Source: Minisyncoccota bacterium
GTDB lineage: Bacteria; Patescibacteriota; Minisyncoccia; Phycocordibacterales; SBAW01
Length of the DNA: 64,000 nucleotides
Direction of reading: 5' to 3'
NCBI GenBank assembly: GCA_035546575.1
Contig: DASZWN010000001.1
Span: 49,082-113,081 of the forward strand
Shown: positions 9,001-56,395 of the stretch, in pieces
Layout of the letters: every line of letters begins with the position of its first letter
How positions within the stretch are numbered: position 1 is the first letter of the stretch
Notes under the pieces: model-generated
Seen by the model: the letters and a program-made list of their open reading frames with translations, nothing else
What the model was told of the DNA's origin: nothing
The model's database searches: none
Made by a program: the position numbers and the translations under genes

Positions 9001-9901
9001 AAACGGTGAGAGGTGCGCTGTAATTAATTACAATAAGCCCGGGAGCGCCGGCTCCTCCGCGGCGGAGGGTGCCGGACGATGGAGCAAAAGCTCCGCCGCC
9101 GCCCGCGCCGTATGTGCCTCCCGCTCCTGCGTCTGCTGCGTATCCAGAACCGCCGCCTCCGCCGCCGGACCCGTACGCGGGTGAGGAAGAAAATTCAGTT
9201 CCTGCGTTTCCTGGGAAGGCGGCCCTGATGCCGCTTGTGATCCCGCCGGTGCCGCCTGCAGTGCCATCCCCTTGCCCGCCATTGGTGCTATTACCTGCCA
9301 CACCGGCGGCGCTTGGGCCGCCGGCACCGCCCCCTCCGCCGCCGGAAATAACCATGCCTGCCCCGCCTGCGCCACCGCTATTTTTTATTGAGCCGGTGCC
9401 TGACGCGACTCCTCCTGTAGCCGATCCTCCTGCTCCCGCGGCGCCCCCCCCGCCGCCTGTACCTGCGCCCCCCGCCCCTCCGCCTTTCGCACAGACGGAG
9501 GCAGCCGCGCAGGCGGCGCCGTTAAACCACGCATCTCCTCCTGCGGTTGCCCCGGAAGTTCCGCCGCCCGTGCCTCCGGCGGGAAGAAAATATGTCGCCG
9601 TCGATCCGCTGAGCGTTATGTTTACCGATTTTGAATATCCACCGCCGCCACCACCACCGCCCCTTCCCGTCGTGTTGCTGGCGACTCCGCCGCCGCCTCC
9701 TCCAGCCGCAATAACCTGCACCGTGTTGCTCGCATTGTTCCAGTCAGAAGGCACGGGCCAGGTTTGGTTTGACGCGCTTGTCGTAGTGAGATAGATCGGC
9801 CCCACTGGAAACGTAGGGGCGGCCATGACAAAGGGTGCGGGGCCTGCAAAAAATACCAAAAGCGCGAAATAGAAAAGAAACTTTTTAACGTAACTGTTCA
9901 T
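6065..9901 (-). CDS. Giant glycine-rich secreted surface protein (1278 aa) with an internal duplication, Calx-beta-like and Cys-rich Ig-like modules
   Basis: There is a signal peptide (MNSYVKKFLFYFALLVFFAGPAPFVMA) followed by two homologous modules. Module 1 begins near aa 48 (WPVPSDWNNASNTVQVIAAGGGGGG...GGGGGGGGYSKSVNITLSGSTATY) and module 2 near aa 760 (WTVPSDWNSANNSIEVIGGGG...GGGGGGGAYSKKTNVSLTHGASVAY). A VVGTDYSAAPATVTIPANTMSVVVPITAL segment is Calx-beta-like. The C-terminal region is Cys-rich. Confidence 0.8.
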   Translation of the reverse strand: MNSYVKKFLFYFALLVFFAGPAPFVMAAPTFPVGPIYLTTTSASNQTWPVPSDWNNASNTVQVIAAGGGGGGVASNTTGRGGGGGGGGYSKSVNITLSGSTATYFLPAGGTGGGTSGATAGGDAWFNGAACAAASVCAKGGGAGGAGTGGGGGAAGAGGSATGGVASGTGSIKNSGGAGGAGMVISGGGGGGAGGPSAAGVAGNSTNGGQGDGTAGGTGGITSGIRAAFPGNAGTEFSSSPAYGSGGGGGGSGYAADAGAGGTYGAGGGGAFAPSSGTLRRGGAGAPGLIVINYSAPLTVSITAPTNSGNSCIGTPGAFTVTRNGPATWPAVSVDLVYGGSGSTAVVGTDYSAAPATVTIPANTMSVVVPITALQKTSGGSTTLKATIAASSAYSVGTPASATITINNGTPAIETVSPYAIAPFAAYPLPYNGYIYHQDGGWGYTNQFATPTSILNAWITNSPSPQLCGTNGGTAGISLPSDTAQGVCMGPNFSTTVAGTRVAVLQAVAQTAGIAPVNVGLDLTNVKKTNPCNTSTTHWAYATAPTQNTPAATLKVPKYTPVQFSYQCLPNQNYVWFGAACQGAYIISCLSWTLVTDGDLNVQTADRAWYKGTETANLIDSSTQTFSNSQSVTLQCGGYQPQEGIPANGGSPPAASSGTAPTGGSYTIYGMQNPSYRQPQIQVDVQTCSDPTAIVQGGVCVPCNTVTSGSYRSGNTCVLYPPPTATIQANNAGFQAADSSGNKNGKLVSVGVGQQVTVAATYAGSTNQTQKTVFITAAGSGVWTVPSDWNSANNSIEVIGGGGTSAFTGGRGGGGGGGAYSKKTNVSLTHGASVAYRVGQGAAQGNPASPGGDTFFNRTAGSSNTCVDTVSVCAKGGNSGNGNNGGAGGAVSGGVGTVKYAGGAGAYGDNNNSGNGGGAGGPNGNGQAGDSGGAGDAGLGGAGSGCGNPPAAGGNGAEWIATNVWNGSAYTGATPTAGSGGGGGCRSSIAAPGGNGGLYGGGGGSGGGSQSNEGVGAQGIIVIKYTSTGDPLEATAINCDSGCDSQDGNTVNCNLVAPPNPPAASDPNCWQKPDATKTYTFTPASADAGKAFVFSAQAKTFNYINYNGYATVQVKVCAVGQASDGNGGCVPDMCTNLPGFQTTVPSGCTGNPDNTCSVPSGYAFNGSACVPSTPSVPTLSANSFTATRVRLGGSSTLSWNIPGMANGISCSISPTPASGTAGGDITSLWNGSSNPFTGTATTQPITQPTKYTLTCTNNQDPPSTRSITVQLIPNYQEI

Positions 9902-10858: not shown

Positions 10859-10880
10859 GTGCGAGAGATAATAACCCGTA

Positions 10881-10916
10881 ATTTGCATATATGCAAATCT
10901 GTCTCGGCGCCGAGAC
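10881..10916. promoter_or_regulatory. Two adjacent perfect palindromes in the rpsT/ruvA divergent promoter region (candidate operators)
   Basis: ATTTGCATATATGCAAAT (10881..10898, 18 bp, perfect) and GTCTCGGCGCCGAGAC (10901..10916, 16 bp, perfect) lie 40-75 bp upstream of ruvA. Confidence 0.4.
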
Positions 10917-10955
10917 GGGTGGCGCCTTTTTCGCTACCCATCTATAGTTAGAGTA

Positions 10956-11546: not shown

Positions 11547-11551
11547 ACAAG

Positions 11552-18228: not shown

Positions 18229-19929
18229 GTGTACAATATATGCATCATGGTGGTCTTTAACGATACCGAAAACGATAAGCGCGTAGACTTTTTGCGCCGC
18301 CGCGAGGAAGAGGAGCTCGCACAAATGCTTGCACCTAAATATGGGGTCGACTATGTCGATCTCTCGCTTGTTGCTGTTAACACCGATGCGCTCCGGCTCA
18401 TTACCGAGGACGAGGCGCGCGATGCAGAAGTGGCTGTGTTCGGCCGCGTCGGGAAGCGCGTTTCAGTAGCAGCACGCGCGCCAGAAAACCCGAAGGTAAA
18501 AGCGATTGTGAGTAAGTTGGCTGATACTGGCTATGAGGTTACGCTTTTTATCACTTCACAGGAGAGTCTTAAGCGGGCATTTACACGCTATGCCGACCTC
18601 TCGTACGCGACTGAGACAAAAGCCGGGGTGTTTGAACTCTCAAACCAGGAGCTCGAAGAGCTGCTTTCAAAGGTAAAGAATCTGAGCGACATCAGCGCAC
18701 TCGTTAAAGAGGCTATCGATCTTAAAAAAGCCTATCGCACGACGCGCATCTTGGAGGTTATCTTAGCAGGCGGCCTTTCAACCGGCGCGTCCGACGTGCA
18801 CTTCGAGCCGGAGGAGGCACAAGTGCGTTTGCGCTACCGCCTCGATGGCGTGCTTGTCGATGTCCTCTCTTTCGATCACGAAACATATCGCCAGGTGCTT
18901 TCTCGCCTCAAACTCCTCTCAGGGCTCAAACTCAATATTAACAACGAGGCGCAAGACGGCCGCTTCTCGATAAAAATTAAAGGCGACGAAATAGAGCTGC
19001 GCACCTCGATCCTCCCCGGCAATTATTCAGAGACTTTGGTGCTCCGCATTCTTAACCCAAAGTCGATCGGCGTACCGCTTGAGGAGCTTGGCCTCGAACC
19101 CGAGCTGCGCGCACGGATCGAGAAAGAAATCGAGAAGCCAAATGGCATGATCCTCAATACCGGTCCGACTGGCTCGGGTAAAACAACCACGCTCTATGCC
19201 TTTTTGCGTAAAGTTAACGCTCCCGGCACAAAGATCATCACTATCGAAGACCCGATTGAATATCACCTACCCGGCATCGTCCAAACCCAGGTAGATAAAA
19301 AGAACTATACGTTCGCGAGCGGCCTGCGCTCAACCCTGCGCCAAGACCCCGACATCATCATGATCGGCGAGATCCGCGACGGGGAGGTTGCCGACACCGC
19401 TATCAACGCGGCGCTTACCGGCCACCTCGTGTTCTCGACCCTGCACACCAACAACGCAGCAGGCACGTTCCCCCGCCTGATCGACCTCGGCGTATCGGAA
19501 AAAATATTGTCCTCCGCAGTAAATGTAGCAATGGCACAGCGCCTCTTGCGCAAGCTGTGTACTGCGTGTCGCAAACAGCGGCCCGCAAATGATATCGAGC
19601 AGAAGGTAATCGACCGTATTTTAGGCGATGTCGTCAACCGGGCATTGATTCCGGCTGAAACGCATGTCATGTATACCGCTTCTCCCGAGGGATGCCCCGA
19701 GTGCGGCGGCCGCGGTTACAAAGGCAGAATCGGTATATATGAAGCCATATTTATGGACTCTGCTATTGAGAAAATATTGCGCGAAAGGCCCTCCGAGCGC
19801 GAGATTGCCGCCGCCGCAAAACCGCAAGGCATACCCACCCTGCAGCAGGACGGAATACTCAAAATGTTGCGGGGTATAACTTCGCTTGACGAACTAAGAC
19901 GCGTCGTCGATATCGACCAAGTGAATTGA
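18229..19929 (+). CDS. pilB: Type IV pilus / type II secretion assembly ATPase (PilB/GspE family)
   Basis: There is a GSPII_E N-domain, Walker [15 protein letters not shown], Asp/His boxes, and a tetracysteine motif CTACRK...[17 protein letters not shown]. Confidence 0.85.
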
Positions 19930-28158: not shown

Positions 28159-29493
28159 TCATTTCAACATCATACGAATCTGGTGGATCTCTTGGCTCAA
28201 GATACTGTCAGTTAAGATGTCGTTTTTTACTTTGTCACATGAGTGGATCACGGTAGTGTGATCACGGCCGCCAAGCTTTTCTCCAATGGTTGGGAACGAA
28301 ATGTGAAAGTCCTCGCGCAAAAGATACATGATCACTTGTCGAGGGCGCACTACCTCCTTGCGGCGAGTTTTTTCATAAATACTTGCCTCTTCTATGCCGT
28401 AAAAGTTGGCAATCGTTTTGACCACCTCTTGTACCGAAACAGCCTTTTTAGCGCTGCTCCCTGAGCCACGCAACAGCAGTTTTGCATCGGCGAGCGTAAT
28501 CGGCTTACCGCGCATCTCAAACTGGATTAAAAGTGTATTGAGTGCTCCCTCGAGCTCTCGCACGTTACCCTCTACGGTAGAAGCGAGATATTCCATCACA
28601 TCGTCGGCGACGATAAAGTTATGTTGCGCCGCCTTTGCTTGCACTATCGCAAGCCGAGACTCGTGGTCGGGAGTAGTAACCGAGACGATCATGCCTGCGT
28701 TAAGGCGCGACTTGATGCGGTCCTCCAGGTTTTGGATCATGTTGGGGTGCTGGTCGCTCGAAAACACGAGCTGTTTGTTGCTGTCATGCAAAAAGTTAAA
28801 GAGATGAAAGAACTCCTCCTTTGTTTTTTCCATTTTTGCCAAAAACTGGACGTCGTCCATGATCAGTACGTCGTATTGGCGATATTTTTCTTTAAAAAAC
28901 TGCACTTTCCCGGAGCCAAGCGAGGCAACATAATCCATCGCAAATTTTTCCGAGGTCATGTATTGCACTTTACGCTCAGGGGCATTAACGCGGAAATGAT
29001 TCCCTATCGCCTGGATCAAATGTGTTTTACCTAGGCCGGTCGGCCCCCAGACTAGAAGCGGATTATAGGCGATACCCGGCTTGCGGATCACGGCTTGCGC
29101 GGCCGCATGCGCGAGTTCGTTAAATGGCCCAACCACAAGAGAATTTAGGGTAAAACGCGGATTAAGATTGGTCTTTTGATGCACATTCTCAAGCGGAAGC
29201 TCCGTTGGTGCTGCTGCGCGTACCTCCTCTACAGGTTTTTTTGAGCCGCGGGAAATCACGTACTCGACGGTGCGGATATTTTCCGAGAGTCCGCGCAGTG
29301 AATGGAGGATATCCTTGTGGAATTTGGTAGAGAGCCAGTCGCGAGCAAACTGGCTGGGCACTCCTAAGTGCGCCACACCCTCCTCTACGCGTATCAGGTG
29401 TGTATCTTTAAACCACGTGTTGAAATTTGGGCGAGAGATCGCAAGTTCGAGTTCTACAAGAGCGTTTTCCCAAATTTCTTTTGTGGTTGTCAT
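28159..29493 (-). CDS. dnaA: Chromosomal replication initiator DnaA
   Basis: The start is taken at [16 protein letters not shown]. The AAA+ Walker A reads [14 protein letters not shown], and a C-terminal HTH DNA-binding domain is present. Confidence 0.9.
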
Positions 29494-29598
29494 AGTCTGC
29501 ACGGTCACACAACAATACGCTCCGCCCACCCCCGAGTCAAAACAGTACTTTTGTGTACAAAGGTGTGGAGAAACTGGGGATATGCTATAGTCTCCTGT

Positions 29599-32578: not shown

Positions 32579-33532
32579 TTAATTTGATCCTATCCCGCCC
32601 GCCGAAGCTTTTACGCAACTGTACGATCCATCAGGGCCTATCTTATAGTTTCCGTACAGTGCTTCACAACTGTCATGATCCCCTTTGTCGTACGATCCTA
32701 CATTACGCACCGATTGCTGTTGTGCTGCGGGCGTGTTGTTCGAGCCCGGAACAACCAGATTAAATTTTAGAAGATCAGGATTGATGGTGTAGAGAATAAG
32801 CCATGAGCCAGCCAAAAGGAGTAACCCATAGATAGAGGAAGTCATCCATCGCTTAGCGTCTCCCTTTGTTTCCATCACCTCGGAGGTCATGTACATAATG
32901 CCTCCCACAACCAACCTTCCTACAGCGAGCAATGCGCCTACAGAAAGAAAGAGCTTAAACATAAGGTTTAAGTATGCGCCAAAGTCAGAAGCAATATTGG
33001 CAGGAGCATCGGGAAGCAACGGCTCAAGCGGAGTGTAGGAAATATTTCCGTTTGAGTTGCTGGAGCCTCTATTTGTATTTCCAGAACTGCTTTGAGTTGT
33101 TGCAGAGGTCGGAGATACTGATGTAGGCGAAGCGGTTGAAGAGGTAGTAACCGTATAGCCAGAGGGAGCTGCGGTACAGTGCATTCCTCCGCCAGAAGAA
33201 GAGCAGCCGCTCGGGAGCCTTCCAGATACAGGGATCGGGCAGTCGTATCCGCCTGAGGCTGCGGTGCATACGGCTGGTGTAAGATCGCATGTGTGTGCCG
33301 TGCCACTACCGGAACACGTATATCCGTTTGGTTCGCCGCTGCATTTGAGCTGCGTTGCTCCAAACAGGTCGCAATTGCCAGGTTTCTCCATTTCGCCGGT
33401 TATGTCGCAGACATACTGCACTTGTGACCCGGCCTGCTGCTCGCTACAGCTGATATCGGCTCCCTGTACAGATAAAGGAGCTAAAAAGCTAAGAACAAGC
33501 ACTATAGGGAAAAGGAGTCCGATTTTTTTCAT
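32579..33532 (-). CDS. Cys-rich secreted protein with a C-terminal two-helix hydrophobic hairpin (TrbC/VirB2-like pilin candidate)
   Basis: A signal peptide is followed by a domain with 14 Cys, then an S/T-rich linker. Two hydrophobic helices follow (FKLFLSVGALLAVGRLVVGGIMYM and IYGLLLLAGSWLILYTI) separated by a short charged loop, which is the VirB2/TrbC topology. Confidence 0.4.
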   Translation of the reverse strand: MKKIGLLFPIVLVLSFLAPLSVQGADISCSEQQAGSQVQYVCDITGEMEKPGNCDLFGATQLKCSGEPNGYTCSGSGTAHTCDLTPAVCTAASGGYDCPIPVSGRLPSGCSSSGGGMHCTAAPSGYTVTTSSTASPTSVSPTSATTQSSSGNTNRGSSNSNGNISYTPLEPLLPDAPANIASDFGAYLNLMFKLFLSVGALLAVGRLVVGGIMYMTSEVMETKGDAKRWMTSSIYGLLLLAGSWLILYTINPDLLKFNLVVPGSNNTPAAQQQSVRNVGSYDKGDHDSCEALYGNYKIGPDGSYSCVKASAGGIGSN

Positions 33533-34569
33533 AATCCAAATGCTGATAATGCGGTGTCTGTTTGCCCTCCAAACATAATTCTCAAAGCAGCTTGTGCGTC
33601 CTGTACAAACTTTTTAGGGTCGGTATTTTGTACCTCCACACTAACATCTGCTTGTCCGGCCCCGTTCCCTGCCTGCCTTAATGTGAGTATGCCACTGTCT
33701 GAATTCGGGCCAGACGTGCTGTCCCCGTTAAGCGTCCATGCAAAAGATGCGGTGCCGCCTCTAAGGCTCTCATTCGCAAAATAATAGGGCGCAGCCAGAA
33801 GCGTGATCTCTTTCCCGACAAGCGTTATAGTCGATGGAAATGCCTGGTCGTACAGAACGCCTCGCAACGGGTCTTTATTATAAAAAAGCACTCCTGGGTT
33901 AACTGCAGGGATAAATACCGATGCTTGCCCCACGAGCGAGCTCCCAAAGTAGATATCTACATCAACCTGCTCACCGCTGCGCAACTGGCTCCCTTGGAAT
34001 GTAAAGGTATTGTGGCCTTTGCCCGAGGCTACAGTAACCGGGTCGCCATTGAGTTTCCACTGGAACGAGAGGTTGTTTGCGGTGACTGTTCCCCCACTCA
34101 ACACTACCTGCGGGAATGCAACCACTTTTATGCTCGATCCTGCGGTATATAACGCTTTGCCGCGATAGAGTGGCGGCACCGAAGTATCTGCTTCCCAGAA
34201 CAAAGCTGTGCGAGTTGGAGTAAATACAAAATCGTTGGTGATCGTCCCCTGTATGGAGGAATTTATAACTACGTGGACTCGCGTAGTGACTCCGAGGTCG
34301 CCTGTAGTAAACGAGAATGTCTTTTGTCCTACCCCCGACAAAACAGTCTTTCCATTGACTTGCCATGTGATAGTAGCGTCACCCAGAAAAGTCCCCACAC
34401 CTTGTACCTCCATGGTCGTAAGCTGGTTTGGGCCAGGGACGTCGGGGTTAGTGATATAGCGCACAGGGTCCACACCTAGACTTTGTGCACGTACAAAGCT
34501 TCCGGTAAGGAAAATAAGTCCAAGCAGTATGATGATTTTAAAATTATGCCGCATATGCTGTACGTCCAC
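33529..34569 (-). CDS. Secreted protein with three tandem Ig-like repeats
   Basis: It has a signal peptide and three repeats of about 100 aa (ATITWQVNGKTV, NLSFQWKLNGDPV, SFAWTLNGDS). It overlaps both neighbours by 4 and 26 nt. Confidence 0.5.
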   Translation of the reverse strand: MDVQHMRHNFKIIILLGLIFLTGSFVRAQSLGVDPVRYITNPDVPGPNQLTTMEVQGVGTFLGDATITWQVNGKTVLSGVGQKTFSFTTGDLGVTTRVHVVINSSIQGTITNDFVFTPTRTALFWEADTSVPPLYRGKALYTAGSSIKVVAFPQVVLSGGTVTANNLSFQWKLNGDPVTVASGKGHNTFTFQGSQLRSGEQVDVDIYFGSSLVGQASVFIPAVNPGVLFYNKDPLRGVLYDQAFPSTITLVGKEITLLAAPYYFANESLRGGTASFAWTLNGDSTSGPNSDSGILTLRQAGNGAGQADVSVEVQNTDPKKFVQDAQAALRIMFGGQTDTALSAFGL

Positions 34570-35290
34570 GCCCGCCCTCTATATCCTTAAGAGTATCATT
34601 TGCAGCGCGAGGAATCTTGAGATTATCATTTGCAACTGTGGGCTGTTTCGGCGGCTTAATGTCGCTGTCTACTCCCCTTCCAAGCTGCAGGGCCGGCGTT
34701 CTCTCCGGCGTTTCTACACGCACAGGGCCTTCTTGTTCTTGTTGAGATATTTGTTGCGACTGGTCCTGCGAAGGTCCCCTGTTTACTCCCCCCGCAATCG
34801 TAGCGACTGTTGCTCCCGGAGAAGTTGCTGAAGTTGTCAGATTGCCAGCTATTGAGAGAACACCAGTTCCCTCCTCTGCATTCTTTTTTAAGACACAAAG
34901 AATAGTAAGCGTTGTCCAGAAGGGGATTATATTAAGGCCCGGAATGAGCTCCCCGCCTCCCCAGATCAGGTATTTTGGGTACAAGATTCCGTTAAACCCC
35001 ATAAGGGCAATTAAAAAGACCCCGAGCGTGGCACTAATGCAAAAGCCCAATGCTATGCCCATACCCATGCTGATAGGCAGTGTTGCAACCGCAAGTATCC
35101 CATTAACGAAGGGTAACCCTCCGATGGCACCGAGTACTTTGCAGCCAATGTCACCTGCAATTTGAGTTCCCACAAAACAGCCGCCGATAGGACCTGGTAA
35201 AGCCCCCACTGCAAATAATGCAACAGACATAAAAGCCTGAAAGCCGTCTATCAAAAGTCCAAGCAATATAAATAATACCCCTTTACTCAT
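34544..35290 (-). CDS. Gly-rich polytopic membrane protein
   Basis: 248 aa with 4 transmembrane helices and a C-terminal S/T/Q-rich tail. It overlaps VirB4 by 4 nt. Confidence 0.45.
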   Translation of the reverse strand: MSKGVLFILLGLLIDGFQAFMSVALFAVGALPGPIGGCFVGTQIAGDIGCKVLGAIGGLPFVNGILAVATLPISMGMGIALGFCISATLGVFLIALMGFNGILYPKYLIWGGGELIPGLNIIPFWTTLTILCVLKKNAEEGTGVLSIAGNLTTSATSPGATVATIAGGVNRGPSQDQSQQISQQEQEGPVRVETPERTPALQLGRGVDSDIKPPKQPTVANDNLKIPRAANDTLKDIEGGRGRTAYAA

Positions 35291-37125
35291 GATGTAGTTG
35301 GAGCAGAGCTCGACGCAGTGTTGGCAGCATCGGACCGTTGTTTGCGCAGTGCGAGCACCTGACTTGGATCAGAGGTAATGATCTGATCCTCGGTATACGA
35401 AGCAATTATTTTAATAGCAACGTGTTTGAGGCCGGCAAAAAAGATTCCCTCCCCCACATCAGACTCAAGAAGCAGGAACTTTTCCTCATCGGAAAGGTTG
35501 AATGTCTTTTGGAGGTTATCAATCGTAGTCGGCGATTGCTTGAGCAAAAGCTGAATCGACGAGTTAGTGATCATCGGGAGGCCATAAGGCGACTTAAGGA
35601 AGTCGTCCACATCTTGCGTAATAGTCGCGAGCCCCAAATAGTATTTGCGGCCGCGCTTTGCCATACCGTAGAGGAACGAGGCGGTGTCCTCCGACTTCAT
35701 CATCCACCACGCTTCGTCGATCACGAGCAGGCGCTTCTTTAGATTTTTGCGCACCGTGTTCCAGATGTAGTGCGTAATCAGGTACATCGCGACCGGCTTA
35801 AGGTCGTCCTCCATGTCGCGCACCGAAAATACGACGAACTTTTTGTTGATGTCGACGTTTGTTGCCTGGTTGATAAATCCGGCCCAAGTTCCTTTGGTAT
35901 ATTTGGAGAGGCGCTGCACTAATGACTCGCTTCCCTCCATACCTGCAAGCACCAGTTCAAAGTCGCTTAGGAGCGGCGGCTCAATCTGGCTGAAGTCGGA
36001 GTCAACCGTAATGTCTTTAAGCGCATACGTTTCGGTAATAGCGCGGTCCATAATCGCGTCCTCCTCCGGCGTGAGGCCGCCCATCATAAGGCGGAACATG
36101 CCCACAAGGGCTACGATATTGCTGCGCAGCACATCGGCCGGCGACTCGTCCTCGCGTGGAGGGGCCAGATCAAACGGGTTGATGTGGTGCTCGGAGTTGA
36201 GAGAAATATTGAAGTAGCGCCCCCCTACCGCCTGGGAGAGGAACTCGTACTCGCGCTCCGGGTCGATCACGATAACCTCGGTATCAAACATGAGCGTGCG
36301 CAAAATTTCGAGTTTGGTTGCATACGATTTGCCGGAGCCCGATTTTGCGAATATCACCGAGTTGTAGTTCTCCAGAGAAAAGCGGTCAAACAGCACGAGC
36401 GATGCGTTGTGGCGGTTAACGCCATATAAAATCCCTTTGTCGGAGGTGAGATCAAACGAGACGAATGGGAAAATTGATGAAAGCGGCGAGGAATTTAATT
36501 TTGAGTTTACGTTAAGCGCGTCTTCTCCCAGCGGCAGCACCGATTTAAACCCCTGCTCTTGCTGAAAGAGTGCCGGTTTAACGTACACCAGGCGCGACTC
36601 AAGCATCGACTTGATCTCGCTCTCTGCCTTGTCGAGTTCCTCCACTGTTGCGCCGTAGATCGTAATGTATACGCCAACGTCAAAGATGCGCTCCTGTGCC
36701 TGCTGGAGCTGGTCGCGCAGGTCTTCCAGGTCGCGGTACGCGGTGTCGAGTATCGGGTCGCGCACCAGGCCTTTTTGCTCGCGAGTCATAATCTGCGACT
36801 GCACCTCAGCCACCTTTTTTTGGAACTTTTTAAGAATCTCGGCCGAGTCTATCGGGTGGATAAAGATAGACACATCAAGCACTCGGTCTAGGTTGATAAC
36901 CGGGGCAAACCAAGAGTCGGTAAGCGTGCGCGGATATGACATCACAAAGAAAGTACGTGCTATTTTGTCGCCCAAGTTAAGCTCGCGCGGAGTTATCTTA
37001 AGTGCCGAGGGGGCAATAACGTCTTGGAGCTCGAGTATGCCCTGTTTGTAGATCTGTTCAGGCAAAATCGGCGCCATCGGTGCCGGAGCAGACTGCTTTT
37101 GTTTTAGAAAGTCGAGTAAAGCCAT
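35287..37125 (-). CDS. virB4: VirB4/TrbE/CagE-family T4SS ATPase, C-terminal two-thirds
   Basis: It has a CagE_TrbE_VirB region (NLGDKIARTFFVMSYPRTL) and Walker A IFAKSGSGKSYATK. A DEAWWMM motif and the C-terminal ATPase domain follow. The likely ATG at 37125 sits 1 nt after the stop of the upstream N-domain ORF. Confidence 0.8.
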   Translation of the reverse strand: MALLDFLKQKQSAPAPMAPILPEQIYKQGILELQDVIAPSALKITPRELNLGDKIARTFFVMSYPRTLTDSWFAPVINLDRVLDVSIFIHPIDSAEILKKFQKKVAEVQSQIMTREQKGLVRDPILDTAYRDLEDLRDQLQQAQERIFDVGVYITIYGATVEELDKAESEIKSMLESRLVYVKPALFQQEQGFKSVLPLGEDALNVNSKLNSSPLSSIFPFVSFDLTSDKGILYGVNRHNASLVLFDRFSLENYNSVIFAKSGSGKSYATKLEILRTLMFDTEVIVIDPEREYEFLSQAVGGRYFNISLNSEHHINPFDLAPPREDESPADVLRSNIVALVGMFRLMMGGLTPEEDAIMDRAITETYALKDITVDSDFSQIEPPLLSDFELVLAGMEGSESLVQRLSKYTKGTWAGFINQATNVDINKKFVVFSVRDMEDDLKPVAMYLITHYIWNTVRKNLKKRLLVIDEAWWMMKSEDTASFLYGMAKRGRKYYLGLATITQDVDDFLKSPYGLPMITNSSIQLLLKQSPTTIDNLQKTFNLSDEEKFLLLESDVGEGIFFAGLKHVAIKIIASYTEDQIITSDPSQVLALRKQRSDAANTASSSAPTTS

Positions 37126-37126
37126 A

Positions 37127-37795
37127 CTATTTTTGTGCTGCCATATTGGTAACCTGGAGCGGCTTTTCAAGTTCGCCGGGGTTAAACAGCTTGTAGAAGA
37201 GCTCGATCACCTCCTCGGTACCAAGTTTGACCACGCGCACAGAGGTGCGTACCAACCCTTGTTCCACAACCGAGATTCGCTGCTCGAGCTGCGTGCGATA
37301 TTGCTCGAACTGCTCGTCGGTCAAAGAGTTGGATGCATTTTTGCCTGTCGGCAGCAAATTGCCGAGCGCCGAGATGCCTCCGCCCCGAGCAATAAGCGCC
37401 GGGTCGTACGGCACAACGATAAAAAAGTTCTTGGCCATGATATTGGCACGCTCAGTAAAGTCTTTGATAAAAACGATGTACTCCCGGATCTGGATCTTCA
37501 TCAGGTCGTCGAGCTCAAGCGCATAGCGCTCCTCAAGGAGGGCAATATATGGCCGCACATCCAGGTCTCGGCTCTCAATAAAAAACTGCACCGAGAATTC
37601 GAGCGAATTGAGAAAGTTTTGGAACTGCCCGATAATCGCCTGCTGCTCGTCACTGCTCTTGAGTGCCAAGTTAATAGACGAGGCCATCAGGAGCGCGCGC
37701 AGCGAGCCGTCTTTAAGAATAATAACGCCGTCGCGCACCTCTTTAATGGGTACGAATTCCTGTGTTGCTTGAGCTTTTACTTTTTGGTCAGGCAT
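37127..37795 (-). CDS. VirB4-family N-terminal domain encoded as a separate ORF
   Basis: It reads VPIKEVRDGVIILKDGSLRALLMASSINLALKSSDEQQAIIGQFQNFLNSLEFSVQF, which is the typical PrgJ/TcpF/VirB4 N-terminus. An A5 run at the junction means a 1-nt indel would fuse it to the downstream ATPase ORF. Confidence 0.7.
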   Translation of the reverse strand: MPDQKVKAQATQEFVPIKEVRDGVIILKDGSLRALLMASSINLALKSSDEQQAIIGQFQNFLNSLEFSVQFFIESRDLDVRPYIALLEERYALELDDLMKIQIREYIVFIKDFTERANIMAKNFFIVVPYDPALIARGGGISALGNLLPTGKNASNSLTDEQFEQYRTQLEQRISVVEQGLVRTSVRVVKLGTEEVIELFYKLFNPGELEKPLQVTNMAAQK

Positions 37796-37800
37796 AGGAT

Positions 37801-38247
37801 TTAAATCTCAAAGCCGGTACGCGCAGTGGTGTCCGCCACTCCCATCTTAGCCCGATCTTTTATATTGAGTGACCAAGCCAAATCCTTGAGTTTGCTTTCG
37901 GAAAGTTTTGGCACTCCGGATACTGTCGCAACAGCTGTAGGTGCAACAGCTGCCTCGGGAGTTTTTGCCTCGTGTTGTTTCCAGAGATACAGCTTATGAC
38001 CCAGGATATAGCTGAACGCATGTTCGATCACCACAATAAGTGGCCGGCCGTTAACCTGGTAGAACGCAAGACCTGCCGAGAGTGCAATCACCGGTATGGC
38101 TAGAATAACGGTGAGATAAAGAGGCAAGAGCGAAAAGAAGATAAGACACAGCCCTCCCCCGCCCGCCAAGTAGATAAACTGTTTTAAGGTCAGCGGACCA
38201 AAAATCTTGTCTTCTATCTCGATAAACTGAGGAACCTGATAGCGCAT
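37801..38247 (-). CDS. PrgI-family (VirB3-like) small membrane protein
   Basis: It has the PrgI N-terminal signature MRYQVPQFIEIEDKIFGPLTLKQFIYL followed by two transmembrane helices. It lies immediately upstream of VirB4, as in Gram-positive T4SSs. Confidence 0.7.
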   Translation of the reverse strand: MRYQVPQFIEIEDKIFGPLTLKQFIYLAGGGGLCLIFFSLLPLYLTVILAIPVIALSAGLAFYQVNGRPLIVVIEHAFSYILGHKLYLWKQHEAKTPEAAVAPTAVATVSGVPKLSESKLKDLAWSLNIKDRAKMGVADTTARTGFEI

Positions 38248-38924: not shown

Positions 38925-41075
38925 CTAGTGGGCTGGTTTTGAATGTCCAAAAGCATCATGTCCATCTGATTTTTTAGAGTCATCGTTATTTGGAGAATGA
39001 GATTCTTTATCGTGTCCTTCTTCTTTGTCATGATCTTCTTCACCCCCACCCTCTTCTTCGTGATGATCTTTTTCAAATTGTTTTACCGCTTTCAAAAGGT
39101 TATCGTGTGCGCCTCCTCCCTTCGCCATCTTAAGTACTTTTTCTGCACCTAGTGTTTGAGCACGTGAAAGACGACTATTAAGCCGCGCTGCCAACTTCTC
39201 GAGATTCTCCTTCTGTCGTAGAGAAACTCTGCTGCTACCGACTTCAGTCAGAGACTTAATTTCCTTCTCCTTGTCTTCAGCAAGTTTCTTGCTTACTTTC
39301 GCACTTTCTCTATAGCTATCTGCCGTTGCACCAGTTGATTTTGCTGCAAGAGCTGCAAATTTTATAGCATCACGTCGGGCTTCTTTTAATTCGTCTTTCA
39401 GTCCACCAACTTTTTTCTCATATTCGCCTCGGCCATTTTCCTCGTCATACTCTCTTTCAAACCTTCTTTGTTCACGAGCAACATCTACCGCATCGCCTTT
39501 GTAAGCCTCAGCCTGCTTTTGGTAACCCTTAGCAGCCTCATCAATGGCTTTTGCAATACCACCTTTGCCGCCCGCTTTGCCAAATTCTGTTAACCCGACT
39601 TTTCCTAAAGGATTTCGGAGATCGAGACTGCCTTTCCCAATTCTGTTTGTGTAATCAAATATTCTACCGATAGTACGCGGATTAGATGTAGCGACGCCCT
39701 GGAATCTTTCTGAACGGGAAGCTTCATATGCAACTCTGCCAACGGTATTTCTGTAGAATCGTGCCGGAATAGCAAATCCGACTTTGCCCCCTGCCCAGTT
39801 TCCTGCTTGGGCGCCTATAGCACCCATACCATCGGCGGCTTTCATACCCAGGAAGAGCATTACGATAATGAACCCCAATCGTATAGATATATCAGCAATC
39901 AGTGCAGCTATACCAAGTAGACCATTAGTTGCTCCAGCCACTCCTGTTGCAGCTCCTGTGGGCTGTTGTATGTATGTGACAAATGCCTGGCTTATATTAA
40001 GATCGCCAGCGAACTGCACAATAAGCCAGAAAATAAAGAGAAACACAGCGGGATAGAATGCATGGCTAATAAGTGTTTCTTGCCATTGGTCGTAGTATTT
40101 TTCAAAGCGATGCGAAGCCTTGGCTATAAAAGCCAGGGGTGATGCAACGATAATAAGCCACAGCACTGCAATACGCACAATAAATCGTATGCCTACCGAC
40201 ACAAAGGCGGCGGCAAGGATGAAATATATAACGCCCATAAATATGTAAATGATCAGGAGCGTTATGAATTCGGTAACACCATTGGTATTGTCTTGGAACT
40301 TGCCAAACGAATCCGTACCAAGTATTTTCTGCACGCCTACCGCATTCATAATGCTCGCGGTAAGATCTTTGGTGCCATTTACCGTCGCAGGTTGCCCATT
40401 AACAATCACAGTGGGTACGGCATTATAAAACTGTGCCGCAACAATATTGCCGGCATCTATTACGACTCGAGTAAAGAAAAAGCTGAAGTTGATGATAAGC
40501 GCAATAAATATTACGAAAGCGAGCGTCTGCATCGTGTGGCCTGTGTCCGCTGAGAGTATGATTGTGATCGCAATATAGATAAGTATGAGAATGAACCCCA
40601 TATTAGCTATGTCGCGAGCCGTTTCCCACCCATGGGTGACAAACGTTAGGCCATACGCGGTGCTGTTTATCGATAACTGGGTTGCTACGTTAAAAATGTA
40701 AGCTGCAACATATGCTACAAAACTTCCGAACCCAACCGTGAAGGCATATACAGGTAAAAGAAGACAAGAGCTTATCGAGTTACAAAGAGGGGCAGTATTA
40801 GTAGTTACAGAATTTGCAGATAAACCATGGGCTTCAGCTGCTTGTTTTTCACAGGCTGCCTGATTACCTCCATTGTTGACACATGCTTGTGCTTCAGAAT
40901 TTGCTTGATTACGAGCATTGATAGCATCAATTTGTGCCTGGGTTATGACAGATGCTCCTTGGGCTTTTGGTGTTGCTCCAATCGATGAAAACACAAGTAG
41001 CAGCGTCGCAAGGCACAATAAAGCTTTTGCAGTGCTGCTTAGAAATTTATTTTTTATGCTACTGCCCCAGCGCAT
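38925..41075 (-). CDS. VirB6/TrbL-like polytopic membrane protein with charged coiled-coil C-terminal tail
   Basis: 716 aa with a signal or N-terminal transmembrane segment, then at least 7 transmembrane helices. The last ~250 aa are highly charged (KE/KD-rich) and His/Glu-rich. It sits upstream of PrgI and VirB4, matching the Gram-positive T4SS order. Confidence 0.55.
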   Translation of the reverse strand: MRWGSSIKNKFLSSTAKALLCLATLLLVFSSIGATPKAQGASVITQAQIDAINARNQANSEAQACVNNGGNQAACEKQAAEAHGLSANSVTTNTAPLCNSISSCLLLPVYAFTVGFGSFVAYVAAYIFNVATQLSINSTAYGLTFVTHGWETARDIANMGFILILIYIAITIILSADTGHTMQTLAFVIFIALIINFSFFFTRVVIDAGNIVAAQFYNAVPTVIVNGQPATVNGTKDLTASIMNAVGVQKILGTDSFGKFQDNTNGVTEFITLLIIYIFMGVIYFILAAAFVSVGIRFIVRIAVLWLIIVASPLAFIAKASHRFEKYYDQWQETLISHAFYPAVFLFIFWLIVQFAGDLNISQAFVTYIQQPTGAATGVAGATNGLLGIAALIADISIRLGFIIVMLFLGMKAADGMGAIGAQAGNWAGGKVGFAIPARFYRNTVGRVAYEASRSERFQGVATSNPRTIGRIFDYTNRIGKGSLDLRNPLGKVGLTEFGKAGGKGGIAKAIDEAAKGYQKQAEAYKGDAVDVAREQRRFEREYDEENGRGEYEKKVGGLKDELKEARRDAIKFAALAAKSTGATADSYRESAKVSKKLAEDKEKEIKSLTEVGSSRVSLRQKENLEKLAARLNSRLSRAQTLGAEKVLKMAKGGGAHDNLLKAVKQFEKDHHEEEGGGEEDHDKEEGHDKESHSPNNDDSKKSDGHDAFGHSKPAH

Positions 41076-42867
41076 AGCATTGATTGAGTTTGGTACTGGT
41101 GTCGGAGTTGAGCGCGTTCATCTGTGCCTGGAGCGTGGTGCGGTCTTGCTGGGCGGACGTGATATCGGTCGAGTCGTATACACTTCCAGAGTTTTTAAGC
41201 TGAGCATATGAGGCTGCTGCAGCACGGACCTCAAGCAATGTGGTTGCCGAGAGAACTTGCGTCTGGACAGCTTGGATATCAGCAATATCTTGATTAGCTG
41301 CAGTTATTTTGTTGTTGTACAGCGTAACTTGGCCTTCAAGCTCGGCTATTTTGTCGGCAGTACTCTGGGCCAAGTCAGTTTTATTTGCGGCAGTCCAGCA
41401 ATTGCCAAGCGTAGTAAGGTTTGCCTGAGCATTTTGTATGTCGCTAATATCGCCCTGCTCTACTGCGCCGTACTGTTGGGCGTATTGTACCGAGGTCTGC
41501 ATCTCATCAAGCAGGTCATTTGCCTCGCCTTCTGCTTGCAAATCCTCTGTGCTCAATGATGCGCCGTAGCCATTTTGGCCGTTGCCAAGGTTGGAGAGAC
41601 CCTTATTAAACATCTTAGTGATAAGAGCATTAGTTAGTGCTCCGATGATCTCATCGATGCTTTGGGCAAGATTAAGCTCATTAAGTGTCGACTGCACATT
41701 GGCGTTGAATGCGCCTAGTATTGCGCTGCCTGGCGTTACACAGTTTCCGTCTTTATCTTTTGCGCATAGGAATCCTTGCCCATTGTTGAGCTCTTGCGTA
41801 CTTGCCAGTACTGCACTCCCCCGTGCGCCTTCTATAGCTACCTGCCCGTACATATATGCGCCGAAAGGATTGTTCGTTGGCATGGTGGTAAATGATATGA
41901 GCCCCGGCCACCCGCCTTGCGAGAAGTCACCGCCTGCAAACTTTTCTATGTTGCCGACAACGCCCGAGAGCGTACACGATGGGGCGTTATTGCGCCGCGC
42001 ATAACTCTGTGCAATGGCGATGCGAACTTTAAGCTGGAACGGGCTGCAGAGGAACGCCAGGTTGCTGCCCTCGATCACGCTGCCTGCTGCTTGGTCGGCA
42101 ACATCGTTAAAGAATTTATTGTAGTCTTGCACAAAGGCAGGTTTGCCCTCAAATCCCGAGTTGATCCAGTTGACGGTGTCGTTGGTGATTTTATCTATCG
42201 CAATACGAGCAAGTGCCATCGTGACGCACTTCAAAATGCTATCGGTTTGTTGGTTTGCATGGGTCGAGCTGTCGTTTACATTCACTTGTCCAGATAGTGC
42301 ACCAAAAATAGAGCCGAGTGCTGTGCCCGCTAGCTGGCTTGCGGCAAATTTTGCCAAACAGGCGGCTGCAACACCCGCCAAGCCTGCGCCAAAATTATTG
42401 CCACCCCCGCTCGATACGGTTGCAGGGTCTACGCCAATATACGAAGTACCATACACACTCGTGTTAGTAACCTGGTTGATCGGCGTCGGGTTAAAGAGGC
42501 TCCCTGCTCCACGCAGCGTAAGCGACCCTGAGCCGCTGCTTGAAGTGACGCTTGAACCGTCGAGCCATGTAGCCCCGCTCGGGTTTGCAGAACCCAGATC
42601 GACGTATGAGATAGTGCCGTCGGAGTACCCCCCGCCCGAGCCTTGTCCGCTTACTCCGGTACCCGCGTTCGAGCCAACGGGCACTTGCCCGTTTACATCG
42701 GAGCCGATCGTGCCGGTCGAAGTGTTATTGCGGTCGCCGCCCGTGCCGAGCGTGCCGGTGTCAGTTACCTTTGCTCCCCCACCCGAGAATAGCCAGAACC
42801 ATAGCCCAACGATGAGCGCTAAAATAACGAGCGCTCCGATGATTATATAAAGTATCCTTCTGGTCAT
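41059..42867 (-). CDS. Membrane-anchored large extracellular protein (Gly/Ser-rich N-region, helical C-region)
   Basis: 602 aa with an N-terminal transmembrane helix and a G/S/T-rich linker. The C-terminal half is alpha-helical and rich in Q/N/A. It could be a VirB5-like or tip protein, but there is no firm homology. Confidence 0.45.
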   Translation of the reverse strand: MTRRILYIIIGALVILALIVGLWFWLFSGGGAKVTDTGTLGTGGDRNNTSTGTIGSDVNGQVPVGSNAGTGVSGQGSGGGYSDGTISYVDLGSANPSGATWLDGSSVTSSSGSGSLTLRGAGSLFNPTPINQVTNTSVYGTSYIGVDPATVSSGGGNNFGAGLAGVAAACLAKFAASQLAGTALGSIFGALSGQVNVNDSSTHANQQTDSILKCVTMALARIAIDKITNDTVNWINSGFEGKPAFVQDYNKFFNDVADQAAGSVIEGSNLAFLCSPFQLKVRIAIAQSYARRNNAPSCTLSGVVGNIEKFAGGDFSQGGWPGLISFTTMPTNNPFGAYMYGQVAIEGARGSAVLASTQELNNGQGFLCAKDKDGNCVTPGSAILGAFNANVQSTLNELNLAQSIDEIIGALTNALITKMFNKGLSNLGNGQNGYGASLSTEDLQAEGEANDLLDEMQTSVQYAQQYGAVEQGDISDIQNAQANLTTLGNCWTAANKTDLAQSTADKIAELEGQVTLYNNKITAANQDIADIQAVQTQVLSATTLLEVRAAAASYAQLKNSGSVYDSTDITSAQQDRTTLQAQMNALNSDTSTKLNQCYALGQ

Positions 42868-42869
42868 AG

Positions 42870-43763
42870 TTATTGCAAAGAAAGAAGCGTAGCCCAGGCG
42901 CTTCCGGGCTCGTCCTTAGTAAAAAGTATACCGTTTTGTTTAAGTATCTGCGCAATGTTTATAAACACACGCGTCGTCTCGTCTACAAGTGACTGATAGG
43001 TCTGGAGGCCGGCTATGCTGCGCAATGGGTCGCTTACCGCAACCTCCATATCCGAGTATGCTCCCGCGGCGTATGAAAGGTTGTTTAGGATCTGTAGATG
43101 GAGCGGCGCAAGCGTAGGCGGTACGGGCACTTTAGCTAAGTCGCGTACGAGCGCTCGGTACTCTTTTTGTATATTTGCGAGCTTTGCCACTTGCGCTGGG
43201 TCGTTAGAATCGGTTAGATACCCCAACGCAAAAAGCGTGTCGTTGTAATTTGCACCTGGGTGCGCAGCCATCGCAGTCATAACAGCGTTGCCGTATGCCT
43301 TAAGGGCAATAGGCGTCTGGGTTGAGAGGGTTAGGTCGCTTGAAGCGTACGCTGGGGGGTCCTTCTCGCCTTGTATCTGCGCCGTTGCTTGTGCAATAAG
43401 TTGGTTTTGGGTCGGAATATCACTGCCAAGACCCTGTGATTTGGCATCAAATAGGTTGACCAGCAGGCTCTGAGCCACCGTGGTGGTCAAATTAGTACTT
43501 TTTGTGGCGTCTAAGAGTGTGTCTACTGTAGAGCTTGCAACCGCAGCAGTGATAGCGCTCTTGCCTTGTATGGCAAGGAGTGTCTGCTCCCAATTTGGAT
43601 CAACACGTGATAGATCTCTCGGCGCCGTAGTTGCAGTGAGAGTCGAGGGCAAACCTCGCGGTGCTCCCGTTAAATATTGCGCTGCGAGCACAAGTGCGCC
43701 TGACGCGGCAATTGAGCCGACAATAAGCACAAACTGCGCGCTAGGGAGAAAGCGGCTAGGCAT
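42870..43763 (-). CDS. Bitopic membrane protein (first gene of the T4SS-like operon; VirB8-like topology)
   Basis: 297 aa with a single N-terminal transmembrane helix and then a soluble domain. This topology is compatible with VirB8/PrgL-type proteins. Assignment is by topology only. Confidence 0.4.
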   Translation of the reverse strand: MPSRFLPSAQFVLIVGSIAASGALVLAAQYLTGAPRGLPSTLTATTAPRDLSRVDPNWEQTLLAIQGKSAITAAVASSTVDTLLDATKSTNLTTTVAQSLLVNLFDAKSQGLGSDIPTQNQLIAQATAQIQGEKDPPAYASSDLTLSTQTPIALKAYGNAVMTAMAAHPGANYNDTLFALGYLTDSNDPAQVAKLANIQKEYRALVRDLAKVPVPPTLAPLHLQILNNLSYAAGAYSDMEVAVSDPLRSIAGLQTYQSLVDETTRVFINIAQILKQNGILFTKDEPGSAWATLLSLQ

Positions 43764-47196: not shown

Positions 47197-48348
47197 GTGA
47201 AATTGCGGTTAAATAGGCTTATAGCTTCTCACAAAACAGTCCCTTCTTCGGTGGTTGAGCCATATTCTGCGAAGAAGGCAAAAAAAGCGTTATTTATCAA
47301 GCTTTCTATAGGTTTGGCTTCCCTCGTAGTACTTATTGTGCCCCTCGCTGCCCAGGCGGGGGTTCTTTCTATCTTCACGCTTCTATTTGAAAAATCGGCG
47401 GCGGTTACGAGCGCGCAGGGTGTTTCGCTCAATTCTCAGACAATCCCCCTTCTCCAGCCAGCTATTAACCTCGACCCGAACCCTGCCAAGGGTGGCGGCG
47501 ACATTACCGTGGTAGACGGCGCAGCCCTTGTTGCGCTCGATGGGCCCTCCGGCACGCCAGCCGACACGAGCGAGAAGCCGCAATCTTCGCAGATTAGCGT
47601 ATACACGGTGCGCTCTGGCGACACGCTCTCGGGTATTGCCGAGATGTTTGATGTTACGGTCAACACGATCATCTGGGCCAACGACATTAAGGGCCGTGTG
47701 ATCCACCCAGGGGACATGCTCATTATTTTGCCGGTTACCGGGTTGCGCCACACCGTAGCTAAAGGCGAGACGCTCGCCTCAATTGCCAAGACCTACAAGG
47801 GCGATGCGGCTGAGATCGCAAGCTACAACGAACTCGCTGGCGATGCTGCGCTTACGGTCGGTAGTGTCGTGATTATCCCGAATGGTGAAGCGGTTGCAGT
47901 TACCGCGTCGGCATCAGCGCCAAGCAAAATCATCGCCTCGATTCCGAAAACAGGCACGACCGCAAAACTCCACGACGCAGGTGGTCCCGACCTCGACTCC
48001 GACTACGTATGGCCGCTTGATGGCGGAGTGATCACGCAAGGTCTCCATGGATACAACGCGGTGGACATTGGCGCACCAAAAGGTACTCCAATATTTGCAG
48101 CGGCAGCCGGCACCGTGATCATCGCAAAAGACAACGGCGCGTGGAACGGCGGCTACGGCAACTACATCGTGATCCAACACAGCAACGGCACGCAGACGCT
48201 CTATGCACACGCAAGCTCAATCTCAGTCTCGCCAGGCGACCAAGTAGCGCAAGGGCAGACCATCGGCCGTGTCGGCCGCACCGGTGAGGCAACGGGCTAC
48301 CACCTCCACTTCGAGGTCCGCGGAGCAAAAAACCCGTTCGGTAAATAA
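47197..48348 (+). CDS. LysM-domain M23 family metallopeptidase
   Basis: There is a signal or transmembrane segment, then two LysM repeats (YTVRSGDTLSGIAEMF and HTVAKGETLASIAKTY). The M23 motifs are HGYNAVDIGA and GYHLHFEVR. Confidence 0.8.
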   Translation: MKLRLNRLIASHKTVPSSVVEPYSAKKAKKALFIKLSIGLASLVVLIVPLAAQAGVLSIFTLLFEKSAAVTSAQGVSLNSQTIPLLQPAINLDPNPAKGGGDITVVDGAALVALDGPSGTPADTSEKPQSSQISVYTVRSGDTLSGIAEMFDVTVNTIIWANDIKGRVIHPGDMLIILPVTGLRHTVAKGETLASIAKTYKGDAAEIASYNELAGDAALTVGSVVIIPNGEAVAVTASASAPSKIIASIPKTGTTAKLHDAGGPDLDSDYVWPLDGGVITQGLHGYNAVDIGAPKGTPIFAAAAGTVIIAKDNGAWNGGYGNYIVIQHSNGTQTLYAHASSISVSPGDQVAQGQTIGRVGRTGEATGYHLHFEVRGAKNPFGK

Positions 48349-55714: not shown

Positions 55715-56284
55715 CTAACTTGTGAGTTCAGGCGGCTCCACACTGACGAACTTTCCGCACTTGAACCGAGGCGGGACAAGCCACGCCGGATCCTGAGAAT
55801 AGAAATAGTGGTTCCCCACTATCCCCGCTTGCCGGAAGGTCGTTGCCATCCAGCACCGGTTCTCCGGGTCGCTCGTATCCGGGTTCATGTAATACCGGGC
55901 ATTCTTGAGCAACTCGCCAGGAGGTTCAAAGAATCCGAGCGCTACCCACGTAGCAATGGCTTTCGCCTTTTCCCACGCAAGCCCCGACGGAGCCTTTTGT
56001 TTGATCTTGGGGTCGCACGTCCACGAGAACTGGCAACCTTTAAAGACCACACCCTTGATCGTCTTGCCGCCCCATTGCTTGCGGTTGTCTGCCGCTCGCA
56101 TCAAGGTAACGTAGGCGATCATGTATTGGCCCAACTCGGGCTCCCCGCGGCCTTCGTGATACACGTTGAGGGCCATCGGGATAATCTGCGAGCGATAGAA
56201 GGCCTCTTCGCTCGTTTGATCTGATCTCGCCTCCCCTGCCGCACACATCGCAAGCAGAAAGGCAAGTACGCACAGATACCGCAT
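55715..56284 (-). CDS. SleB/CwlJ-family (Hydrolase_2) cell-wall hydrolase
   Basis: It has a signal peptide (MRYLCVLAFLLAMCAAGEA). The family signature reads ALNVYHEGRGEPELGQYMIAYVTLMRA...VVFKGCQFSW. The start is taken at the internal Met. Confidence 0.65.
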   Translation of the reverse strand: MRYLCVLAFLLAMCAAGEARSDQTSEEAFYRSQIIPMALNVYHEGRGEPELGQYMIAYVTLMRAADNRKQWGGKTIKGVVFKGCQFSWTCDPKIKQKAPSGLAWEKAKAIATWVALGFFEPPGELLKNARYYMNPDTSDPENRCWMATTFRQAGIVGNHYFYSQDPAWLVPPRFKCGKFVSVEPPELTS

Positions 56285-56395
56285 TTTCAAGCTCCGTTCG
56301 ATGGTTGTAGCCATCGACCCCCGGAACACTAACCGATATCAAGTATAGCATACTACAACACATTTGTCAAGCATTAGGGAAACCATGATAAAATT

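Follow-up and report, generated by a model that had tools for sequence, protein, structure and literature searches.

In a 64-kb stretch of DNA from a Minisyncoccota bacterium (contig DASZWN010000001.1; the whole stretch is herein called the window), we analyzed a gene that encodes a pilin of 317 amino acids. It is the only VirB2-like pilin found in the window and is part of a chromosomal, origin-proximal type IV secretion system (T4SS) of a Paceibacteria-type Patescibacterium. The hydrophobic hairpin of the protein is strongly conserved, and the regions at its two ends have diverged from those of the closest relative to the level of shuffled sequence. The gene is a member of a described family in a described context, and its identity as a T4SS pilin is already present in databases and in the literature; an NCBI entry with an identical sequence carries the name "pilin [Candidatus Paceibacterota bacterium]".

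Results

Reading from the N terminus, the pilin has a signal peptide and a head rich in Cys and Gly; an S/T-rich linker then leads to two hydrophobic helices, which a short charged loop separates, and to a 62-residue tail. Coordinates are collected in Table 1. Much of this order had been proposed in an initial annotation made from the letters alone, and several of its elements hold up. The N terminus (MKK, then a hydrophobic run, then VQG|AD in the hydropathy analysis) fits a signal peptide, with cleavage predicted after VQG; Ser and Thr account for 31% and 20% of the linker (residues 121-165); and the two helices with their charged loop are seen in hydropathy and in the AlphaFold2 (AF2) model (helices 184-216 and 221-250; predicted local distance difference test [pLDDT] scores of 81-87). 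The 14 cysteines counted earlier are in fact 12, ten of them in the head (positions 29, 42, 54, 64, 73, 82, 89, 98, 110, and 119) and two in the tail (289 and 306). The tail itself and the YTPLEP and TINP motifs had been overlooked. The mature protein would have ~293 residues, with extensions of 141 residues on the N-terminal side (head and linker) and 62 on the C-terminal side.

The pilin matches the Pfam family PF18895 (T4SS_pilin) with 28.2 bits against a gathering score of 26.6, over residues 189-249 and model positions 10-70 of 71; no other PF18895-type hairpin occurs in the window. All 59 relatives collected initially (59/59) match PF18895, and a library clustered at 50% contains 52,935 representatives of the PF18895-type family (E ≤ 0.001). 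The TrbC/VirB2 family PF04956 is touched by 32 of the 59 relatives at E ≤ 1 (best 2.9e-5) and, at E ≤ 0.001, by 5 of 125 further relatives. Judged by these profile matches, the link to TrbC/VirB2 holds for the family and not for this sequence alone.

Two family motifs stand on either side of the hairpin. YTPLEP, which precedes helix 1, is invariant among the 17 closest relatives and has the form x-PLEP in 159 of 268 family members; the [TS]INP motif after helix 2 is present in 233 of the 268. Tyr214 is kept in 98% of relatives, and in an alignment of 59 sequences Ile250, Asn251, and Pro252, which close helix 2, are invariant, as are Gly236 and Leu247. The charged loop lies at about residues 217-220, within MTSEVMETKGDAKRWM, and Lys223, Lys227, and Arg228 stand at the start of helix 2. 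We infer that this K/R-bearing loop points into the cytoplasm and that in a fibre it would line the lumen. YTPLEP and TINP flank the hairpin on its outward side. A C-x(3-6)-C loop directly before YTPLEP, found in 48 of the 268 relatives, is absent from this pilin. A sortase- or exosortase-type sorting signal made up of YTPLEP, a helix, and the basic loop was considered and rejected, because the element is internal, the conserved helix 2 and TINP always follow it, and no sortase gene lies nearby.

Uneven Divergence of the Two Ends

The closest relative, L001, was used for identity comparisons. Its machinery and replication proteins are very similar to those of the window (VirB4, 97%; TrsD, 95%; DnaA, 95%; DnaN, 87%), and the pilin core is 86% identical (81/94). 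The head, in contrast, is 25.7% identical, the value for shuffled sequence being 24.2 ± 4.0, and the tail is 23% identical; both are thus at the level of shuffled sequence. The same profile is visible in the DNA, where identity is 0.6-0.7 in the flanking genes, 0.3-0.45 in the head, 0.67-0.9 in the core, and lower again in the tail. A three-way alignment nevertheless keeps several cysteines and a C-x-x-GGG-x-x-C hairpin in register, and for this reason very fast divergence on a cysteine framework is favoured, on these alignments, over replacement by unrelated DNA. A metagenome scan for close relatives returned one locus, again of the P0002 type, and no set of head alleles.

Across three relatives, VirB4 is consistently closer to its counterpart than DnaA (28159..29529, minus strand) is (97 versus 95%, 91 versus 81%, and 91 versus 78%). 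The 248-residue membrane protein of the operon shows 38% identity in the first of these, was not detected in the second, and shows 35% in the third, and the 716-residue VirB6-like protein shows 48, 37, and 32%.

The Cysteine-Rich Head and the C-Terminal Tail

The head (16% Gly, 12% Ser, and 10% Cys over residues 25-120) has cysteines at intervals of 13, 12, 10, 9, 9, 7, 9, 12, and 9 residues (coefficient of variation 0.18). Only 3 of 100,000 shuffles matched this regularity; since the gaps fall evenly between 7 and 13 residues and shuffles rarely do so, the "repetitive" pattern described in the initial annotation is real. AF2 models the head as five β-hairpins, albeit at low confidence (pLDDT 44-71), with a pair of successive cysteines enclosing each of them (C29-C42, C54-C64, C73-C82, C89-C98, and C110-C119).

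Compared with the heads of the first 59 relatives, the head gave a best E value no lower than 0.3, and a head-only search of 5.8 billion proteins returned no match; as that query also missed its own parent protein, the result is no proof of an orphan. Among 92 members with an N-terminal region of at least 70 residues, drawn from 273 sequences, the head of P0175 matches at E = 4e-7. The two share a module of ~45 residues with four cysteines, C-x(8-13)-[YW]-x-C-x(5-9)-P-x-G-C-x(6-13)-C-x(2-7)-P-x-G-[YF], of which this head holds ~2.5 copies and P0175 two; it is also present in P0136, P0011, L006, and L012, and in part in P0007 and P0113. Because the module recurs in relatives, the head is seen to be built from a recurrent small disulfide module and is no unique invention, and the idea of a unique orphan head was dropped.

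A related element occurs once outside the pilins. A secreted glycine-rich protein of 1,278 residues, encoded in the window at 6065..9901 (minus strand) and weakly similar to Gly_rich_2 (22.9 bits, under the cut-off of 24.3), holds one PxGC...C...PxGY element at residues ~1140-1175 (VPSGCTGNPDNTCSVPSGY), as in the pilin head. It is the only non-pilin match to the regular expression among ~7,600 open reading frame (ORF) segments of the window and the loci, and could reflect a shared surface module or chance.

The tail consists of a variable linker followed by a helix and a β-hairpin (pLDDT 82-85). In an alignment of 125 relatives, the two C-terminal cysteine columns are at least 90% conserved, and a terminal cysteine pair is found in 150 of 268 family members. 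In 157 of the 166 single-hairpin relatives, the C-terminal extension holds an even number of cysteines, as would be expected if it lay outside the cytoplasm and formed disulfides.

Extensions Are the Norm in the Family

The family follows a common plan: signal peptide, optional insert, x-PLEP, hairpin, [TS]INP, variable linker, and terminal cysteine pair. The 166 single-hairpin relatives have a median length of 247 residues; the region before the core (signal peptide counted) reaches at least 100 residues in 37 of them, and the C-terminal extension reaches at least 40 in 164. The head-bearing design is therefore not unusual within the family, and ectodomain extensions are the norm.

In some relatives, a single predicted polypeptide holds PF18895 hairpins in tandem, from 2 up to at least 9 of them (P0061, P0062, P0112, P0097, P0063-P0068, and locus L055 at ~10765-12150). 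P0112 (552 residues) has six copies, P0097 (1,775 residues) at least nine, and the L055 ORF (461 residues) three; P0061 joins four hairpins to a C-terminal SLT transglycosylase. Such proteins could be pilin polyproteins or fused arrays. Cell-wall hydrolases are also fused to the C-terminal, outward end of the hairpin, as VanY (P0038 and P0046) or NlpC/P60 (P0053); further fusions involve SLT_3 (2 of the first 59 relatives, one of them P0054), SLT (5 of the 125 further relatives), and Peptidase_M15_4.

The T4SS Operon and Its Surroundings

The pilin, VirB4, TrsD, and PrgI genes lie on one strand with overlapping or abutting reading frames. The pilin ATG shares bases with the stop codon of the gene before it (ATGA), and the downstream neighbour begins two bases past the pilin stop codon. 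The cluster is bordered by jag, yidC, dnaA, and dnaN on one side and by ksgA (named by gene order) and a UvrD helicase on the other. Several further proteins of the cluster match no family. An order of 11 genes, with the pilin, its ~400-residue partner, jag, yidC, dnaA, and dnaN at its end, recurs in L001, L003, and L004.

We scanned one genome per GTDB species with a 17-sequence alignment as query and obtained 79 loci, almost all labelled Patescibacteria, for which flanks of up to 10 kb on each side were fetched. VirB4 lies within the fetched flank in 72 of the 79, and 3 of the 7 exceptions end <1 kb upstream of the pilin. With the shared operon and the three syntenic contigs, VirB4 therefore accompanies the pilin elsewhere, and the lack of co-occurrence that the initial annotation had named as evidence against itself was not found. 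More than one pilin ORF was seen in 3 of the 79 loci. The two proteins encoded on either side of the pilin (346 residues upstream, 416 downstream) have no recognised T4SS role and are candidate pilin-specific partners.

No relaxase and no VirD4/TcpA-type coupling protein, such as a conjugative (DNA-transfer) T4SS would encode, was found among 30 proteins of the 64-kb window (Pfam for all, NCBIfam for 10 of them), in line with PMC12102498; the remaining proteins scanned are housekeeping. Promoter and terminator scans over the cluster stayed at chance level. Elsewhere in the window there are envelope genes for a T2SSE/PilB-type ATPase (18229..19929, plus strand), a LysM and M23 peptidase protein (47197..48348, plus), a Hydrolase_2 cell-wall hydrolase (55715..56329, minus), and a membrane-associated trypsin-like peptidase (62582..63736, minus).

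Table 1. Features of the pilin gene and of the T4SS cluster, in coordinates of the window
Feature	Coordinates	Strand	Basis or remark
Pilin gene (317 aa + stop codon)	32579..33532	minus	ORF coordinates; identical protein in NCBI
Signal peptide, aa 1-24, MKKIGLLFPIVLVLSFLAPLSVQG	33461..33532	minus	hydropathy and translation
Head, aa 25-120, 10 regularly spaced Cys	33173..33460	minus	composition, AF2, module comparison
S/T/N-rich linker, aa 121-165	33038..33172	minus	composition; AF2 disordered (pLDDT 39-49)
Conserved pilin core, aa 166-255 (YTPLEP, helix 1, charged loop, helix 2, TINPxLL)	32768..33037	minus	PF18895 match aa 189-249
YTPLEP motif, aa 166-171	33020..33037	minus	family alignments
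Helix 1, aa 184-216, ends GGIMYM	32885..32983	minus	AF2, conservation
Helix 2, aa 221-250	32783..32872	minus	AF2, conservation
TINP motif, aa 249-252	32777..32788	minus	family alignments
Tail, aa 256-317: variable linker, then helix and β-hairpin knob around C289, C306	32582..32767	minus	AF2, alignment
Downstream partner, 416 aa, N-terminal membrane helix	31327..32577	minus	orthologues match Tricorn_N (β-propeller); in 64/79 loci
Upstream partner, 346 aa, secreted, no Cys, translationally coupled to pilin	33529..34569	minus	in 64/79 loci
Gly-rich polytopic membrane protein, 248 aa	34544..35290	minus	38% identity to the closest relative
VirB4-like ATPase, CD1110 family (NF045971)	35287..37170	minus	391 bits vs cut-off 325
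TrsD/TraC-like protein, resembles VirB4 N-terminal part	37127..37795	minus	family scan
PrgI family protein (VirB3-like)	37801..38247	minus	family scan
716-aa polytopic protein, 6-7 hydrophobic helices, charged C-terminal tail	38925..41075	minus	VirB6-like by architecture only; no family match
Two single-helix membrane proteins (602, 297 aa), open the conserved cluster	41059..43763	minus	synteny

Discussion

The reading that we lean toward, as somewhat better than evenly probable, is that this single T4SS pilin is polymerised into a fibre or conduit on which the head and the tail knob are outward determinants of host contact. It builds on direct observations, namely the family membership, the operon and its synteny, the terminal divergence, and a cysteine parity consistent with the topology. 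In the F pilus, an F-type filament 87 Å in diameter with a five-start helix, the lumen is lined by the loop that connects the long helices, and both ends of the subunit are exposed on the outside (Costa et al. 2016, PMC5018250); the outward position of the head is modelled on the termini of TraA, which lie outside in that structure. The pilin would be exported by Sec and lose its signal peptide, the two-helix hairpin staying in the membrane with the N-terminal head and the C-terminal knob outward and disulfide-bonded and the short K/R loop in the cytoplasm. A VirB4-driven machine would then pull the hairpin out and polymerise it into a fibre or conduit, as in F and T pili, so that the loop lined the lumen and the termini lay outside; the head, on its 45-residue S/T linker, and the knob would coat the surface as fast-evolving points of host contact.

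Whether such a coat fits can be gauged roughly. The rise of the F pilus is reportedly ~12-13 Å, a value from a study of that pilus, and together with a diameter of 87 Å and five starts it allots each subunit an estimated ~700 Å2 of the shaft surface. A head of 96 residues has roughly that cross-section, with more room at the radius of the tether, which suggests that coating is sterically possible.

Several points weigh against a fibre built from this protein. No T4SS pilus has so far been observed in any Patescibacterium (PMC12857230). At ~293 residues, the mature pilin is several times the size of pED208 TraA (64 residues) or of the Southlakia pilins (~126-138 residues), and its packing in a filament is in doubt. 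AF2 confidence in the head is low (pLDDT 44-71), and both the disulfides and the retention of the head on the mature pilin are assumed. The measured similarity to classical pilins is also weak. The initial annotation had read the protein as VirB2/TrbC-like; the PF18895 score above the gathering threshold and the family-level link to PF04956 support that reading, whereas the pilin itself gave no match to PF04956 at E ≤ 1. The family profile reaches Agrobacterium tumefaciens VirB2 (8cue) at E = 0.77 only, although in register, and hhalign comparisons with approximate TraA and VirB2 sequences gave probabilities of 4-7%. These comparisons aligned the expected segment (the pre-helix region and helix 1), with GGIMYM opposite GAVMYM.

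More tentative, and rather doubtful, is an extended form of the fibre proposal for Paceibacteria-type Patescibacteria, in which the single pilin would be a modular display scaffold. The conserved hairpins would form a bottle-brush pilus of conjugative type, and the tethered heads and knobs, whose divergence far outpaces that of the rest of the genome, would set host specificity, a task ascribed in Saccharibacteria to arrays of small pilin paralogues; the hydrolase-fused relatives would then be fibres with a VirB1-like activity of their own.

Possible, though in our judgment unlikely, is an arrangement in which the hairpin stays in the membrane as a stationary T4SS component, channel part, or anchor and no pilus is made. 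Its ectodomains would act at the cell surface, for instance in adhesion, as a spacer across the wall, or as a carrier of other domains. No pilus is formed by the MPF-FATA (Gram-positive-type) systems, to which the Patescibacterial T4SS is most closely related (PMC12102498); measured against the core, the ectodomains are large; and the hydrolase fusions and the multi-hairpin proteins (2 to at least 9 copies) suit an anchor better than a filament subunit. The conservation of the core, however, exceeds what a simple anchor would need: 86% identity is sandwiched between flanks at random level, Gly236, Leu247, Ile250, Asn251, and Pro252 are invariant, and Tyr214 is nearly so. The family is, moreover, tied to TrbC/VirB2, the Southlakia pilins matching both PF18895 and PF04956 in the published annotation (PMC10633639).

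It seems improbable that the head serves as a pro-region, or as cargo secreted along with the pilin, and is cut off near YTPLEP to yield a soluble disulfide-rich peptide and a pilin of canonical size (core and tail). Classical VirB2, TrbC, and TraA are matured from long precursors. In the shortest relatives the signal peptide stops 5-10 residues before YTPLEP (e.g., ...ASA|ATAGQLSYTPLEP), and this cleavage site so close to the motif therefore marks YTPLEP as the usual mature N terminus; the motif is also kept whatever sequence precedes it. On the other side, family scans of the cluster proteins recognised no protease gene in the cluster, a normal signal peptide already precedes the head and makes a leader role superfluous, and the long S/T linker resembles a tether more than a cleavage cassette. 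A last alternative, in which the hairpin is fortuitous and the protein an unrelated secreted one near virB4, has in its favour that fold searches return generic helical hairpins only; it is refuted by the PF18895 match above the gathering score, the 52,935 representatives, and the presence of VirB4 in 72 of 79 loci.

Comparison with Known Pilins

The initial annotation had also held that such a protein "is not a described T4SS component". This does not survive the NCBI name, the published PF18895 pilins near virB4 and dnaA (PMC12102498, PMC10633639, PMC12857230), and the normality of extensions in the family. In a survey of 3,035 Patescibacteria genomes based on PF18895 and PF04956, Quinonero-Coronel et al. 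(2025) detected VirB2-like pilins in 1,948 assemblies in which VirB4 is encoded as well; the T4SS of Paceibacteria lies beside dnaA, dnaN, rnpA, ksgA, and rpmH and usually lacks a relaxase (PMC12102498). The Paceibacteria pilins of that study likewise stand beside virB4, prgI, and trsD near dnaA. In Southlakia, the T4SS and pilin genes are essential and are needed for epibiotic growth (Wang et al. 2023; PMC10633639, PMC12857230), and a 2025 review called a Patescibacterial pilus an "intriguing possibility" (PMC12857230).

These papers describe arrays of 2-11 divergent pilin paralogues (PMC12102498, PMC10633639). The Southlakia pilins SEML1_0014-0019 belong to the same Pfam family, PF18895, as the pilin studied here. 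Four of the six array pilins (SEML1_0016-0019) have ~126-138 residues with the hairpin at the C-terminal end, whereas here a single pilin of 317 residues carries both extensions; variation thus lies in paralogue number in the Southlakia-type arrays and in the terminal extensions here. For Bartonella and Anaplasma, variation among VirB2 paralogues has been proposed to serve host range or immune evasion (as cited in PMC12102498); the exposed pilin surface is variable there as it is here, but through multiple small paralogues and not one gene. Large extra pilin domains, or their divergence, find no mention in PMC12102498, PMC10633639, or PMC12857230.

The pilin resembles VirB2/TrbC (PF04956; T-pilin 8cue) in having a signal peptide and a pair of hydrophobic helices connected through a short basic loop. 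It is, however, about three times larger and comes from an MPF-FATA-like system in a monoderm; the mature VirB2/TrbC subunit is essentially the hairpin, in contrast to the ~293 residues and large extensions of this protein. GxxMYM, with which the first long helix of F-pilin TraA ends, aligns with GGIMYM here (approximate TraA sequence; hhalign 6.7%). Neither pED208 TraA nor F TraA has an ectodomain, unlike this pilin. The pED208 protein has 64 residues, and its Tyr37 contacts lipid (PMC5018250); that Tyr214 is the counterpart of this tyrosine is a guess.

Type IV pili offer an analogy in another respect. In their pilins, too, a hydrophobic segment that serves assembly is conserved, and an exposed region stabilised by disulfides evolves fast; the likeness is one of analogy only, for fold, assembly machinery, and topology are unrelated to those of this pilin.

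Significance

Patescibacteria, a large part of the uncultivated bacteria, live on other cells, and in the sole species examined by genetics this way of life requires the T4SS and its pilins. The family comparison adds no new class of component. Its under-described remainder is the single-copy, ectodomain-bearing pilins of the Paceibacteria type and the extreme divergence of their ectodomains: these pilins usually bear exposed domains at both ends, and the domains have diverged beyond recognition at a distance at which VirB4 is still 97% and the hairpin 86% identical. This uneven divergence offers a handle on host recognition, as a part to swap, a target for antibodies, and a place to seek selection.

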